Of a stretch of 45,614 nucleotides of DNA, positions 7,986 to 21,153 are shown piece after piece; within the stretch, counting starts at the first letter, position 1; each line of letters begins with the position of its first letter. Below the pieces are notes generated by a model. The model was not told where the DNA came from, searched no databases, and was given only the letters and a program-made list of their open reading frames with translations. Position numbers and translations under genes: made by a program. This DNA is from a virus (lineage: Duplodnaviria; Heunggongvirae; Uroviricota; Caudoviricetes), in the IMG/VR virus record IMGVR_UViG_3300028833_000099; one strand, written 5' to 3'.

Positions 7986-8803
7986 CACTTCTCAATTTTT
8001 TTGATAGTTCCTTTGTCACCATCAATAGCGTAGCCTATTTCCTTGGCAATCACTGGGAAAAACACATCATCGAAATATGTGCTTGCATCGCCATTGCAAA
8101 ATACTTCCACACCAAAATTGTAGGCAGACGGATAAAGCATAATGCGTTCAAAAATCTCGCTCCAATATGCAGTAATGGTGTGTTTGATGTCAGACTTCTC
8201 ACAGATAGAGCCATCATTGAGGTTAAGCCACTGAATGAAACGAGTACCATTTTTCATCATTTCGCTAACCCTATGCATTTGCTCATATTCCATGCGTCCA
8301 GCGAGAAAAGCCAATTCTTTGTGTGATGTGATGTCATAGATGTAACTATCTTCGCCATAGTGTGCGCTTTCCTCAATAAAAGCGTTCCATAACTTGACAA
8401 GTTTCTCTTCTGATAACTTCTCAATGGTTTTGAGATAGGTCTTGCGCTCAATAGGGCTCATTTCCTTGATTGTGCGCTGCTCACAGAACAATGCTACGTT
8501 ATCGCCATGGGTGTTGAAGAAAGTCACAATTTCCTCGTCAGTCGGCTTGGTGCTGAATGTAATTTCAGAAACCATTTTCTTGAACTTCTCCAGCGGAGAC
8601 TGCAAGCAACGGAACATTCCCTCATGCTCGGTGTAGTCAGCCATAAAATCCTTAAAGTGCAAACCATACTCGTTGATATATTCACTTATCTGCTTGTCAC
8701 TTGGAACGTCAATGTTAAGTTCCTTACAAGCCTTAATGACGTTCATACGAAAGCCAATCACCCTATGGGCAAAGCCAATCAAATCATTTTCTTTTTCTGC
8801 CAT
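7985..8803 (-). CDS. Hypothetical protein
   Basis: Start reassigned to MAEKEN after AGGAG leader and promoter. Confidence 0.85.
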   Translation of the reverse strand: MAEKENDLIGFAHRVIGFRMNVIKACKELNIDVPSDKQISEYINEYGLHFKDFMADYTEHEGMFRCLQSPLEKFKKMVSEITFSTKPTDEEIVTFFNTHGDNVALFCEQRTIKEMSPIERKTYLKTIEKLSEEKLVKLWNAFIEESAHYGEDSYIYDITSHKELAFLAGRMEYEQMHRVSEMMKNGTRFIQWLNLNDGSICEKSDIKHTITAYWSEIFERIMLYPSAYNFGVEVFCNGDASTYFDDVFFPVIAKEIGYAIDGDKGTIKKIEK

Positions 8804-8872: not shown

Positions 8873-9013
8873 TTAGGAATTATTTTCCAATTTTTTTGAT
8901 AGTTCCCTTGTCTCCATCTTCTTTATTTTTCTTCTTAATTTGTTATTGTCGTGTATAAGCATGAAAACAATACACATCTGGACAACAGATAAAAATGCTA
9001 TTAACTCTTCCAT
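8873..9013 (-). CDS. Small membrane-anchored protein, 46 aa (MEELIAFLSVV...)
   Basis: Manual translation. Confidence 0.55.
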   Translation of the reverse strand: MEELIAFLSVVQMCIVFMLIHDNNKLRRKIKKMETRELSKKLENNS

Positions 9014-9540: not shown

Positions 9541-9617
9541 TAGCACCCCTCGTAGGACTCGAACCTACGACCCTCGGTTGTTGGCAACCGATGCTCTACC
9601 AACTGAGCTATCAGGGT
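9541..9617 (-). tRNA. Atypical or degenerate tRNA; anticodon unassignable
   Basis: D arm GCTC-AGTTGGTA-GAGC and T arm GTAGG-TTCGAGT-CCTAC are canonical. Anticodon arm TCGGT-TGCCAACA-ACCGA has an 8-nt loop, or a 7-bp stem with CCAA loop. Acceptor ACCCTGA/GAGGGGT has 2 mismatches; ends GCTA rather than NCCA. Confidence 0.75.
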
Positions 9618-17408: not shown

Positions 17409-17840
17409 TTAATATGGATAATCAATTTCTTTAAAATAATCTATAATCTTTTTAGAGGTCTGCGCTGCATATTGATTGCGAGGGTCAAAACGTCCACTTT
17501 CACAGCATTTAGCCAATTCCTCGATATATGCCAAACATACCTTAAACATTTCATTCTGTAGGTATCTGTGCTCACGGCACATCATTTCTGCTACGTGCTT
17601 CGTGCTATGCAACTTGCCATTAACAAAATTGCCAAAGAAACGTGCAAACACATCGTCACTATTCTCGCCACATTTTGGGCAAAGGTCATACTCAAAACGT
17701 TCCAATACCTTTTCCATGAGAAAATCTCTATCCTCAGAACAAGCCTTGGTATCATCTTTAATGAGACGAAGAATCTGCTCGTTACTCAACTGATAACTCT
17801 CATACTCACGTCCGTCAATTGTAAATTTCTTACTTGCCAT
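17409..17840 (-). CDS. Hypothetical protein
   Basis: ORF with promoter. Confidence 0.8.
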   Translation of the reverse strand: MASKKFTIDGREYESYQLSNEQILRLIKDDTKACSEDRDFLMEKVLERFEYDLCPKCGENSDDVFARFFGNFVNGKLHSTKHVAEMMCREHRYLQNEMFKVCLAYIEELAKCCESGRFDPRNQYAAQTSKKIIDYFKEIDYPY

Positions 17841-17991
17841 AATCACTTCATTCTTTAATTCCGCTGCAAAGGTACGAAAAAAAATTCATTCCACCAAATA
17901 AAAACAGAATTATTTTCAATTTATAATAATTTTTTCTTTTTATATATTATAATAAGGTGAAAATAATTTTTTGAAAATAATTCCTTCAAAA

Positions 17992-18023
17992 TTTGGTTAT
18001 TTCAAAATAAATTCGTACCTTTG
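17992..18023 (+). promoter_or_regulatory. Bacteroidota promoter, divergent from the left-arm array
   Basis: TTTG-N20-TACCTTTG. Confidence 0.85.
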
Positions 18024-18051
18024 CACCACAAAAGCAATAAAACAAAAAGAA

Positions 18052-18282
18052 ATGGATAAAAACATTAACGTAAGAGTTATGGGTTTCCCAAAGGAAAACT
18101 ATGACAAGGAGACGCTTGACAAACTTAGTGACAGAGAACTGAGTGATTGGGCATTGGCTGACGGAGATACTGCAATCTTTGAGGATTTGAAAGAATTTCA
18201 AGAAATCCTTAATGATAAAACAAGTTTCTCTAAAGAGCAAGTGAAAAATAACTGGTGGTATTTCTTAACTGACTTGGCATGA
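18052..18282 (+). CDS. Hypothetical protein
   Basis: Start reassigned to MDKNIN after promoter. Confidence 0.75.
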   Translation: MDKNINVRVMGFPKENYDKETLDKLSDRELSDWALADGDTAIFEDLKEFQEILNDKTSFSKEQVKNNWWYFLTDLA

Positions 18283-18623
18283 GGAAAGAACACTTGGAAA
18301 TTGCAAGGGCTTTATATAAACCTACACCAAAGGTTGAAGCCCTTGTTCTCAAATTATATGACTTGCTTGATAAACCACTACTAAATGGGGCGACTATAAC
18401 ATCCCTAAGTTTTAAAAAAGGTGCTCTGACACTTGGTGGCTTGTCTGTCAAGGAACTCGTCAAAAGTGGACAGCATTGCGGTGTAGAGGTGCATTGGTAT
18501 CCAGATTTCACATTGTCCACAAAAACTGACCCATTCTGTAGTGCTTTCATATTGCGCTACAACTCTCTTGAAAAACTCTGCCGTGAGGTGGAAAAGGTAC
18601 TCTCATCAATGAGAGTTGCGTAA
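18279..18623 (+). CDS. Hypothetical protein
   Basis: ATGA overlap. Confidence 0.75.
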   Translation: MRKEHLEIARALYKPTPKVEALVLKLYDLLDKPLLNGATITSLSFKKGALTLGGLSVKELVKSGQHCGVEVHWYPDFTLSTKTDPFCSAFILRYNSLEKLCREVEKVLSSMRVA

Positions 18624-18658
18624 ACAACATTTAAATTAGTATTAATATTAACAGTACT

Positions 18659-18686
18659 GACCCCATTGTTGTTGAAACAGTGGGGT
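18659..18686 (+). terminator. Hairpin directly before repeat R1
   Basis: ACCCCATTGTT...AACAGTGGGGT. Confidence 0.6.
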
Positions 18687-18715
18687 TGTACTTTTTTAAG
18701 TCTATATTATACATA

Positions 18716-18856
18716 ATGGCAATAAACATACATTGTAAAACAATCAATGAGGTTGCTATACTAGCGTTATATTCCAATTATAAGGGAGGAATCATCACAT
18801 TTGATGAACTCAAGGAACAAGGTAAGAAGTTTGGGGCTGTAATTACAGCATCATGA
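18716..18856 (+). CDS. Small hypothetical protein, 46 aa (MAINIHCKT...)
   Basis: Manual translation; fills R1-R2 exactly. Confidence 0.65.
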   Translation: MAINIHCKTINEVAILALYSNYKGGIITFDELKEQGKKFGAVITAS

Positions 18857-18892
18857 ATAGTAACCCATTTTGTACTTATTTAAGTCTTTAAT

Positions 18893-19078
18893 ATGGCAAA
18901 TAGAGTTAATTATCGCATCGGATTTTATACGAGAGACGGAATCTTTAAGATATTGAATAATAAGAAACGCTTTCGTAACTTCTTTCCCACAAGGGAAATG
19001 GCTGAAGAAAAACGCAAAGAACTTCAAGGAAACTACAAACATAGGCTAGAAATACAATCATTCAATTATAGCATATAA
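18893..19078 (+). CDS. Small basic hypothetical protein, 61 aa
   Basis: Fills R2-R3. Confidence 0.75.
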   Translation: MANRVNYRIGFYTRDGIFKILNNKKRFRNFFPTREMAEEKRKELQGNYKHRLEIQSFNYSI

Positions 19079-19132
19079 ATAGACCTATATTGTACTTATT
19101 TAAGTCTATTTATATATTATTGAGCGTAATAA

Positions 19133-19164
19133 TTTGCTTTTCTCGATTATTTTTCATATCTTTG
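19133..19164 (+). promoter_or_regulatory. Bacteroidota promoter inside repeat unit 3
   Basis: TTTG-N20-TATCTTTG. Confidence 0.75.
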
Positions 19165-19217
19165 CACTGTATATATTGTATCCAATTGGATACTGACAGT
19201 AAATTATTAAATAAGAC

Positions 19218-19436
19218 ATGGCAAAATATTACATTAATCAAAAAAACGGAAAACGTAAGTATATTAAAGACATCGACTTTGCTCAAGAAAAACTTACATT
19301 CACTGAGGATGAAGACGATGCATACAGAGGAAGGGATGGATACTATGCAATTCCAACTAGAGACTTAATTCGAAGGAATTTCGTTGATGAGTATCCAGAA
19401 GTTGCAGAACTAGAATGCACAGCAGCATACTATTAA
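19218..19436 (+). CDS. Small hypothetical protein, paralog of 19495..19728
   Basis: Shared Y[IL]K..D...K..FT....A..Y.GR.G pattern. Confidence 0.8.
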   Translation: MAKYYINQKNGKRKYIKDIDFAQEKLTFTEDEDDAYRGRDGYYAIPTRDLIRRNFVDEYPEVAELECTAAYY

Positions 19437-19494
19437 TGGCAACACCCATATTGTACTTATTTAAGTCTAATAACACACTAAAAGGATAAAAATT

Positions 19495-19728
19495 ATGTAC
19501 GGATATTTACTACAAAACTCAAACGATGAATACCTAAAAACGCTAGATACAGCGGAAGGTAAAATAGAATTCACTAAAGAACCTAGTGAAGCAAGAAACT
19601 ATGCTGGTCGTCCAGGTGGAGGACAATGGGATGCTGAAAATGAAAAACAATACCTAGACTTCCATTTTGGAGAAGAATATGGAGAAAGGGTAACATCACT
19701 CAGATGCGTGCTTAGAGAATGGGAATAA
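19495..19728 (+). CDS. Small hypothetical protein, paralog of 19218..19436
   Basis: Fills R4-R5. Confidence 0.8.
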   Translation: MYGYLLQNSNDEYLKTLDTAEGKIEFTKEPSEARNYAGRPGGGQWDAENEKQYLDFHFGEEYGERVTSLRCVLREWE

Positions 19729-19770
19729 ACCCCTATGCTGTACTTAATTAAGTCCAAATAATATATTATT

Positions 19771-19845
19771 ATGGATAAAACTATATTAGAGTTTACCCCA
19801 AACGGAAAAAATAATATTAAACGAATAAAGGATGAGACCAATTGA
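19771..19845 (+). CDS. Micro-ORF, 24 aa (MDKTILEFTPNG...)
   Basis: Follows R5 as in the other units; may be a remnant. Confidence 0.4.
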   Translation: MDKTILEFTPNGKNNIKRIKDETN

Positions 19846-19860
19846 GCCTCATCCTTTTTT
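19828..19860 (+). terminator. Intrinsic terminator
   Basis: AAGGATGAG...CTCATCCTT plus T-tract. Confidence 0.7.
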
Positions 19861-19900
19861 TATTTCTACCCCTAACTTGTACTTATTTAAGTCCAATTCC

Positions 19901-20410
19901 TTAACCAAAGAACGTTCCGTCATTCTGAGGCCATCTTCCATCTGGCTCGTATGCCGCACATTGAAGAACCTTTGAAGTATTATTGGTCATATTCGACAGC
20001 AACTTGGATGCATCATGCTTCTTCATACTCTCCGATAAGTTCTTATATGAGGCACGAAAATTTAGATTTTTTGTTCCAGTATAACATGCGACATATACTG
20101 TTCCAAGATTCTGAATAATCTCTCGCTGATATAATTGCATGTAAATACCACTAGACTTCAAGAAATTCTCAAACGCCTCAAGTTGATAAAAACAACGTGG
20201 CTGCTTGCTAATATCAGACCATTCGTAAAAGTATATACGTATCTCTTTGCTAAACTGAATTTCGCCCTCACTATACTGACCAGGTATCCTATGTACACTA
20301 TTAGGGTAACTGCCACCATAATAAGGAGAACGATATGTAGTAGTCGATTGTTTCCTTTTGCTAATTAACGACCTTCTAAATAAATCTCTTAATTCTTTAC
20401 TTCTATTCAT
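19901..20410 (-). CDS. Hypothetical protein
   Basis: ORF; shares KEI..FY domain with neighbour. Confidence 0.8.
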   Translation of the reverse strand: MNRSKELRDLFRRSLISKRKQSTTTYRSPYYGGSYPNSVHRIPGQYSEGEIQFSKEIRIYFYEWSDISKQPRCFYQLEAFENFLKSSGIYMQLYQREIIQNLGTVYVACYTGTKNLNFRASYKNLSESMKKHDASKLLSNMTNNTSKVLQCAAYEPDGRWPQNDGTFFG

Positions 20411-20415
20411 AATGT

Positions 20416-21153
20416 TTACATGTCACCTAATTCTTGTTCATCACAAGCCTCAAAAAACATTTCGCCATAACTATGTTCAGCCATTATTTCCAATAAACCA
20501 ATCTTCTCGGATTCTGGACACAAACAACAATGGCTCTCATATCTCCATGCTAAGTCATTGGCAACTTCCCTAGATACAAAATATCCTTGACTTTCACAGT
20601 AATCATTGAACTCTTTGATAGAGTTGAATTCTAATTTATCGTCCTTGCAATGATAATCTGGATAAAACCATATCTCCTTGTATTCTGTATCATCTTCATT
20701 CGATGAACACGCCAATCCAATATCATCTAAATTATATTCATCTTCATAGCCACTATAAGGAGCATTTATGTCTATCATTTTAGCCTTTTTGCCCTTCTTA
20801 TGCTTCATCTTACCCTTACCACCCTTGTAAAAAGATTCTTCACGCTCTTCTTGAGACCAGAAATCTTGAAATGGGTCTTTCTTCTTCCCCTTTCCCTTTC
20901 CTTTGCCTTTGGGATTCAAAATTAAGACATCATTGTTCTTGAGAGGGAAAACAACATCACCCTCATCGTCAATGTCATCATCCCAACCAGGAAATACCCT
21001 ATCCCAATAAGCAGCCATATCGTCATAGTCATCCCAATCTTCATAACTACTGTGAATAGGCTCTTTAGCCTTGCGTGATAAGTATTCATGAAATAAACTA
21101 ATAAGATTAGGCTTAACCTTATTAGGAATATCTATTTTAATTTTCTTTGACAT
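20416..21153 (-). CDS. Hypothetical protein with acidic and Lys/Gly low-complexity tracts
   Basis: ORF with promoter. Confidence 0.8.
   Translation of the reverse strand: MSKKIKIDIPNKVKPNLISLFHEYLSRKAKEPIHSSYEDWDDYDDMAAYWDRVFPGWDDDIDDEGDVVFPLKNNDVLILNPKGKGKGKGKKKDPFQDFWSQEEREESFYKGGKGKMKHKKGKKAKMIDINAPYSGYEDEYNLDDIGLACSSNEDDTEYKEIWFYPDYHCKDDKLEFNSIKEFNDYCESQGYFVSREVANDLAWRYESHCCLCPESEKIGLLEIMAEHSYGEMFFEACDEQELGDM

Follow-up and report, generated by a model that had tools for sequence, protein, structure and literature searches.

A conserved single-orientation 16-bp repeat between mini-genes of a rumen jumbo phage as a candidate phage-sigma promoter

The stretch of DNA analyzed here, a 45,614-nucleotide Caudoviricetes sequence from IMG/VR (record IMGVR_UViG_3300028833_000099; hereafter the window), contains six same-strand copies of a 16-bp repeat (R1 to R6) that bound five mini-open reading frames (mini-ORFs; units 1 to 5). 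We propose that this repeat is a strand-specific cis-regulatory element of a rumen jumbo/megaphage family, namely a compact promoter without a -35 block that host RNA polymerase would recognize when bound to a phage-encoded sigma-70-family factor, and that together with upstream terminators it forms cassettes resembling the promoter-early stem-loop (PeSL) cassettes of T4-like phages; we put the probability of this reading at about 0.5. A first-pass annotation of the window had offered three models for the array: an integron-like cassette array, a phage-specific promoter or operator, and RNA-processing sites that cut a polycistron into single-gene mRNAs.

The repeat in the window and in related phages

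A search with TGTACTTAWTTAAGTC, allowing up to two mismatches, returned the six plus-strand copies listed in Table 1, which follow the pattern TGTACTT(A/T)(A/T)TTAAGTC. R1 is a TTTTTT variant with one mismatch, and R5 is an AATT variant with a perfect 12-bp palindrome, whose self-overlap on the minus strand is the sole further match in the window. The chance expectation from shuffled sequences was 0.15 copies, and none of 100 shuffles reached 7. The pattern search and the list of ORFs bear out the first-pass description of six same-strand repeats around five single-ORF units of 46, 61, 72, 77 and 24 amino acids (aa), with the motif absent elsewhere in the window. The stop codons of units 1 to 5 lie 14, 12, 15, 10 and 32 nt ahead of the next repeat, and R1 to R5 lie 13, 6, 111, 27 and 16 nt ahead of an ATG, in agreement with the intervals described earlier (10-15 nt from stop codon to R2-R5, and 6-27 nt from R1, R2, R4 and R5 to the ATG); the 111-nt gap after R3 is explained by the host-type promoter that unit 3 carries itself. 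The terminal copy had also been correctly placed behind a terminator and with no plus-strand gene after it, as R6 follows the hairpin at 19827-19857 and the stop codon of a convergent gene lies 8 nt beyond it. The conserved ACC(C) 5' flank did not hold up: the sites have a weak enrichment of C at -8 to -5, most of which stems from the 3' arm of GGGG...CCCC hairpins, whole or vestigial.

About nine indels aside, the window matches a section of the 295-kb IMG/VR jumbo-phage record G001 at 99% identity, and it is also related to 410-kb rumen megaphages; it comes from a rumen jumbo phage of roughly 300-410 kb, whose host is probably a member of the Bacteroidota. An exact scan of IMG/VR returned many chance singletons together with clear arrays in related rumen phage contigs, and the consensus and contexts of the motif were derived from 112 non-redundant sites in such contigs. 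The conserved block spans ~19 bp, t-TGTACTTWTTTAAGTC-Y-A, which adds a leading T and a trailing Y-A to the 16-mer; the flanks are without information, no -35 or -33 block is present, and a sigma-70 consensus scan found none at any 16-mer. Each genome examined (G001 to G010) has ~6-13 copies, on one strand only, and this strand is always opposite to that of the sigma gene described below. The 16-mers remain near-identical while the flanking proteins share just ~25-50% identity. In cellular genomes the 16-mer occurs just as chance singletons, plus one mis-binned phage fragment. A blastn search of an annotated phage collection returned no match, Rfam gave none for positions 17500-20500 of the window at E values up to 1, and the 16-mer was not mentioned in the literature covered by a full-text search; sigma factors and promoters go unmentioned in the NAD-jumbo-phage paper.

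Among the 112 sites, 47 lie 2-36 nt ahead of a same-direction ATG ORF of 21-124 aa, 32 are adjacent to a convergent gene's stop codon (at -11 to +17 nt, in most cases 0-9), and 33 have neither context, although some of these, like R3, have a host-type promoter after them. A T-rich-tailed hairpin was found within 45 nt upstream of 32/112 sites versus 19/336 random positions, and several mini-genes have a complete terminator upstream with only the 16-mer in between. In G006 and G007, nearly all genes are on the other strand and the 16-mers lie in their 3' untranslated regions or just past their terminators; the terminal copy R6 therefore belongs to a general class and is no leftover. Convergent-facing copies are conserved equally well as the other copies, which argues that they are functional.

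The motif contains a partial dyad (ACTT-N4-AAGT). Dyad-breaking variants (TTTTTT, TTTCAG and TTCAAG) are common and never compensated, and selection on the motif therefore acts on its sequence and not on a hairpin. These variants rule out an N4-type hairpin promoter, an attC-like folded site and an RNA hairpin. A CRISPR-repeat mimic was also rejected, as the 16-mer is too short and its likeness to a Cas12a repeat is an AT-rich similarity only; a parS-like centromere or a polar DNA signal of the Chi/Ter type is not favored, since the copies sit tight at gene boundaries and in the early arm only.

Directly 5' of some 16-mers lies a ~40-nt two-hairpin element of the form TGTA(C/G)...stem, TTTCAC loop...TTCAATGGCAACAACGTTGCCGT (L060:7988-8027, 8596-8635 and 8928-8967; L076:7520-7559; L099-L103), a vestige of which is present at 19438-19447 of the window. 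Its stems covary and its borders carry a TGTAC...TGTAC direct repeat, as in a small insertion or a structured RNA.

A candidate sigma factor and the promoter reading

The search for a phage sigma factor that the first-pass annotation had called for yielded two to four sigma-70-family genes per genome, with one clade tied to the motif, which is confined to phages carrying that clade. The candidate sigma, encoded at 129152-129862 of G001, has regions 2 and 4 and a host-type -7 box ahead of its gene, which lies 1-2.5 kb from a 16-mer cluster in G001-G004; in G009, the gene and three to four motif copies are found on one 6.3-kb fragment. In a tree of 61 phage sigmas, 17/17 members of the candidate clade are on motif-carrying contigs, and none of the 44 sigmas outside the clade has a motif copy within 10 kb. 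A search for a multisubunit polymerase (PF00623) gave no match, with valid controls; that for a T7-like polymerase (PF00940) likewise gave none, a weak negative because its control also had no match.

In G007, a distant relative, one 16-mer is located immediately beyond the sigma gene's terminator and is oriented back into the gene (3907-3922 of L114, which is G007 38001-52000, flipped). If the motif were the promoter of that sigma, this copy would make a negative feedback loop.

RNA data were available as assembled metatranscriptome contigs from three studies, which reveal neither strand nor end type and may include DNA carry-over. Besides the contig ends given in Table 1, one contig end falls near R4, at 19463, a contig begins 21 nt after R4, and contigs from each of the three studies break off at 19872-19880, on the border of R6, which is a weak hint. 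Adapter junctions at 19199 and 19880 in the contigs of one run suggest preferred RNA fragment ends; the former position lies after a palindrome (19180-19193) downstream of the unit 3 promoter, and the latter is the third base of R6.

The promoter reading draws on the single orientation of the motif, its position after terminators and before genes, the conserved Y-A, the likeness of its left part to the host -7 box, and the link to the sigma clade. The left part, TACTTWTT, would be the counterpart of the Bacteroidota -7 box (TAnnTTTG), and transcription would start at the conserved Y-A (+16/+17) right after the 16-mer, giving leaders of 0-35 nt. Among the 47 co-directional sites, Y follows the 16-mer in 46 and A in 29; this fits a -1/+1 start 8 nt after TACTTWTT, which would be the same geometry as that of the host-type promoter, at which the start of an RNA contig (18033) lies 9 nt past the -7 box TACCTTTG. 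At these 47 sites another promoter is excluded because the ATG is just 2-36 nt away, and the genes behind terminator-preceded sites would need a new start because a complete terminator lies upstream. The sigma gene itself, next to one motif cluster, would be under a host-type early promoter. Terminator and motif would together make an insulated joint, with each mini-gene as its own expression unit, and the convergent-facing copies would fire antisense into early operons.

Several observations weigh against this reading. The pairing of sigma and motif, which we infer from co-occurrence, is inseparable from phage ancestry. The motif corresponds to no known promoter consensus and has no -35/-33 block, though the candidate sigma has region 4; ~29% of the copies have no gene to drive, their antisense role being an assumption, and the Y-A at convergent sites is confounded by the adjacent reverse-complement stop codons. 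The number of copies per genome would make a small regulon for a dedicated sigma. RNA contigs cross R2, R4 and R5, as read-through transcripts, and none of the contigs, the only form of RNA data compared, begins at the predicted start sites behind the 16-mers (+17 A). The promoter or operator model of the first-pass annotation is nonetheless the best supported of the three, with copies on one strand, after terminators, before mini-genes and accompanied by a sigma clade; the motif does not, however, precede many late genes, the pattern named there as favoring this model: the copies are found in the early arm only and ~29% face convergent genes.

A motif acting in RNA, either as a processing site that cuts a polycistron or as a leader element for translation or stability, would suit its presence in every intercistronic gap, near the stop codon and the next ATG, as well as the contig ends in or near R1, R4 and R6 in one low-depth RNA run, and the motif is transcribed, since read-through RNA covers R2, R4 and R5. 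However, the convergent-facing and post-terminator copies would lie in no plus-strand RNA unless the motif is itself a promoter, the stem has just 4-5 AU-rich pairs and is broken by the uncompensated variants, no Rfam match was found, and the contig ends fall at no fixed position of the motif. A role in RNA is thus quite improbable, and the processing model in particular is disfavored by the copies that would lack plus-strand RNA, the uncompensated variants and the contigs that run across R2, R4 and R5.

The main rival reading, though an unlikely one, is that the motif is no promoter but is bound by a phage DNA-binding protein and serves as an operator, an insulator or a polar roadblock to transcription from one side, such as at early-operon 3' ends; the convergent-facing copies would then be protein-bound roadblocks. 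The ~19-bp length, strict conservation and partial dyad of the motif would agree with such a site, as would the 32/112 copies by a convergent-gene stop codon and, as a weak hint, the contig ends at 19872-19880 and a contig spanning 19873-21171 that fits a minus-strand mRNA ending at R6; these contig ends are, however, explicable by poor 3'-end coverage beside a hairpin. A protein site gives no account of the copy found 2-36 nt before almost every plus-strand mini-gene, some of them behind complete terminators, and copies past a minus-strand terminator (G006 2155, G007 3907) have nothing to block. The asymmetric ends (TGT..., ...C-Y-A) and strict single orientation would, in addition, be unusual for a dimer operator.

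Gain and loss of units at the repeat

Comparison of the array among relatives revealed a constant and a variable part. The order of the 72-aa family, the 77-aa family, the 70-aa family and the terminal copy is kept even in the 412-kb relatives, and a near-identical 16-mer is present at every array joint, although the unit proteins are only ~25-50% identical. The first positions are occupied by units 1 and 2 (U1, U2) in the window and four strains, by U1 in G001 and three strains and also in L076 and L047, by U2 in L060, L071 and L212, and by a different unit in L031. At the U2-less junction of G001, which recurs in four more strains, the left flank of R2 and the right flank of R3 enclose a single repeat, with 19 bp of exact homology; the remaining indels between the window and G001, most of which fall in the early arm, show microhomology only. 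For units 1 and 2, the boundaries of gain or loss coincide exactly with the motif. The strains without U2 have a common single-nucleotide polymorphism (SNP) in U1, and one event is therefore enough for all of them.

Under the promoter reading, homologous recombination between identical joints would delete, duplicate or insert single units. Such recombination would explain the N+1 repeats for N genes, the paralogous neighbors and the exact loss of the 61-aa unit, and would make a dedicated recombinase unnecessary. The same pattern could be produced by an integron-like or homing-type array in which the motif is a dedicated site-specific recombination site and the single copies are empty docking sites: the number of repeats, the cassettes all in one orientation, the exact repeat-to-repeat gain and loss of the first two units in close relatives, the single copies at many intergenic positions and the TGTAC duplications around the ~40-nt hairpin insert beside some copies are all in keeping with it. 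However, the tyrosine recombinase search proposed by the first-pass annotation gave no PF00589 match in four complete genomes (G001 and three complete 412-kb relatives), with all control genomes matched, and no serine recombinase was found in these genomes either. The site is 19 bp long, with no attC-like fold and no compensatory changes; the order of units 3-5 is unchanged between the window and the 412-kb relatives; the shared SNP leaves a single event sufficient for the U2-less strains; and 19 bp of exact homology suffices for phage recombination systems (PMC2839356). Selfish spread would, moreover, not keep the consensus at orthologous positions over such divergence. The integron-like model is therefore borne out in the exact gain and loss of units at the repeats and the variable content of the first positions, and weakened by the lack of a recombinase, the short uncompensated dyad and the fixed order of units 3-5; we consider a dedicated recombination site very improbable.

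A further proposal combines the promoter and the joints differently. The main job of the sigma promoter might be the antisense shut-off of host-promoter early operons by convergent transcription, including the sigma's own operon in one relative, with the joints as docking points that shuttle ORFan mini-genes between megaphages; we regard this version as doubtful. If the convergent copies were truly antisense promoters, they would constitute a repeated sigma-dependent shut-off device for early genes.

The mini-gene island, the early arm and known systems

The features of the plus-strand island are collected in Table 1. T-rich sequence on either side of the hairpin between unit 5 and R6 makes bidirectional termination probable. 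None of the unit proteins has a Pfam or PHROGs match, and all are therefore ORFans. Units 3 and 4 are tandem paralogs with 33% identity. The 77-aa protein is conserved across 22 metagenomic clusters and is predicted to fold as a small beta3-alpha-beta domain, with a predicted local distance difference test score (pLDDT) of 92.7; a structure search with it returned look-alikes that are all uncharacterized. As this protein is both conserved and confidently folded, the mini-genes are real. What remains in the 24-aa ORF is the N-terminal part of a 70-aa gene (MGKAILEFT.NGRK...); relatives such as L060, L076, L031, L045 and L212 have the full gene.

Table 1. Coordinates of the repeats, genes and expression signals of the island, in window positions.
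Feature	Position	Strand	Evidence
Host-type promoter (Bacteroidota -33 TTTG / -7 TACCTTTG), head of plus-strand island	17992..18024	+	sequence; RNA contig start 18033
Two head genes, both ORFans (76 aa, 18052-18282; 114 aa, 18279-18623)	18052..18623	+	gene calls in public assemblies
Intrinsic terminator hairpin, its U-tract being the TTTTTT of R1	18658..18688	+	RNA contig ends 18690
R1, TGTACTTTTTTAAGTC	18687..18702	+	pattern search
Unit 1 gene, 46 aa, found in only some relatives	18716..18856	+	ORF and comparison
R2, TGTACTTATTTAAGTC	18871..18886	+	pattern search
Unit 2 gene, 61 aa, lacking exactly repeat-to-repeat in G001 and four other near-identical strains	18893..19078	+	ORF and comparison
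R3, TGTACTTATTTAAGTC	19091..19106	+	pattern search
Host-type promoter within unit 3 (TTTG at 19133, TATCTTTG at 19157-19164)	19133..19164	+	sequence; several RNA contig starts 19194-19208
Unit 3 gene, 72 aa, paralog of unit 4	19218..19436	+	ORF and comparison
R4, TGTACTTATTTAAGTC	19452..19467	+	pattern search
Unit 4 gene, 77 aa, conserved, confident fold (beta3-alpha-beta)	19495..19728	+	ORF, structure model
R5, TGTACTTAATTAAGTC	19739..19754	+	pattern search
Unit 5 gene, 24 aa, shortened form of relatives' 70-aa gene	19771..19845	+	ORF and comparison
Terminator hairpin, unit 5-R6 interval, with T-rich flanks	19827..19857	.	hairpin scan and sequence
R6, terminal copy, facing convergent gene	19878..19893	+	pattern search
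Convergent 169-aa early-arm gene, 3' end abutting R6	19901..20410	-	ORF list, public gene calls

The main early genes of the phage have promoters of the -33 TTTG / -7 TAnnTTTG form, which fits a Bacteroidota host. In G001, 33 such promoters were found on the minus strand within 30 kb (130-160 kb), compared with 0-6 per 10 kb elsewhere, and all of its 16-mers lie within the same 130-160 kb, on the opposite strand to the host-type promoters. The host-type promoters thereby delimit an early, ORFan-rich arm at 130000-160000 of G001 (L019-L020). A 2.9-kb contig binned in a 'Bacteroidetes bacterium' metagenome-assembled genome (L283) is an array fragment 87-97% identical to L076, L047 and L045, and its binning is either a weak host hint or an artefact. 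In L060, a near-gathering match to Rfam RF04319, the Bacteroidetes FopS small RNA, lies on the minus strand between the 70-aa unit 5 gene and the terminal 16-mer (L060:9227-9311; 55 bits, cut-off 56, E = 9e-7), which likewise agrees with a Bacteroidota host; the window, with its shortened unit 5, has no such element. ARAGORN predicted a tRNA-like gene with a four-base anticodon (ccaa) at 9543-9617 of the window, on the minus strand.

The motif and its candidate cognate sigma offer a testable cis element and regulator for the timing of expression in one family of uncultured rumen/gut megaphages. The small, well-folded proteins, swapped as single units, are natural candidates for host-takeover or anti-defense functions.

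Phage sigma factors with a promoter class of their own include gp28 of SPO1 and gp55 of T4, whose late promoters consist of a single -10-type block, TATAAATA, without a -35 element. The system proposed here would resemble these in that an early sigma, expressed from a host-type promoter, redirects the host polymerase to a short phage consensus, and it shares the lack of a -35 element with the T4 late promoters. The candidate sigma, with regions 2 and 4, is not gp55-like, however, and the motif is longer, precedes a handful of early-arm mini-genes in place of a large middle or late set, and is paired with its sigma by co-occurrence. For the convergent-facing copies, parallels exist in oop and PaQ of lambda and sar of P22, where antisense promoters are sited at early-gene ends. 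The putative promoters here would likewise fire inward from the 3' end of an early gene; they would differ in being a repeated, dedicated class at many operon ends.

Like integrons, the array has small cassettes in the same orientation, a repeated site, one more site than genes, and, for units 1 and 2, a content that differs between close relatives. Unlike integrons, it is accompanied by neither IntI nor any other tyrosine or serine recombinase, its site is ~19 bp with 4-5-bp arms as opposed to a 57-141-bp folded attC with R''/L''/L'/R' boxes, most of its units keep a fixed order over long distances, and at least one unit has its own promoter.

The closest likeness is to the PeSL cassettes of T4-like phages (Arbiol et al., 2010, PMC2839356; Comeau et al., 2014, PMC4122927). 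In both, short, conserved composite joints place a GGGG...CCCC terminator hairpin beside a conserved expression signal, a putative one in the present array, and flank small ORFans in a hyperplastic early region (here the ORFan units and the 130-160 kb arm of G001); indels between near-identical phages cross over inside the joint, as at the U2 junction of G001 with its 19-bp exact repeat; and the modules would be insulated single genes that include tandem paralogs. The RNA contigs contained no joints of mini-circles such as recombination between neighboring PeSL elements yields. The conserved block here differs in being a single 19-bp motif, a putative promoter that lacks both a sigma-70 -35/-10 pair and a Shine-Dalgarno sequence, and an adjacent hairpin accompanies only about half of the copies. 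It also belongs to a second, minority-strand system, the main early genes being already on host-type promoter cassettes; ~29% of its copies face convergent genes, and the phage lineage, of the rumen Bacteroidota-type megaphages, is unrelated. The array would thus extend PeSL-type modular gene turnover beyond the T4-like phages. We suggest that the system combines PeSL-type regulatory cassettes with a putative phage-sigma promoter class in a family of uncultured megaphages.

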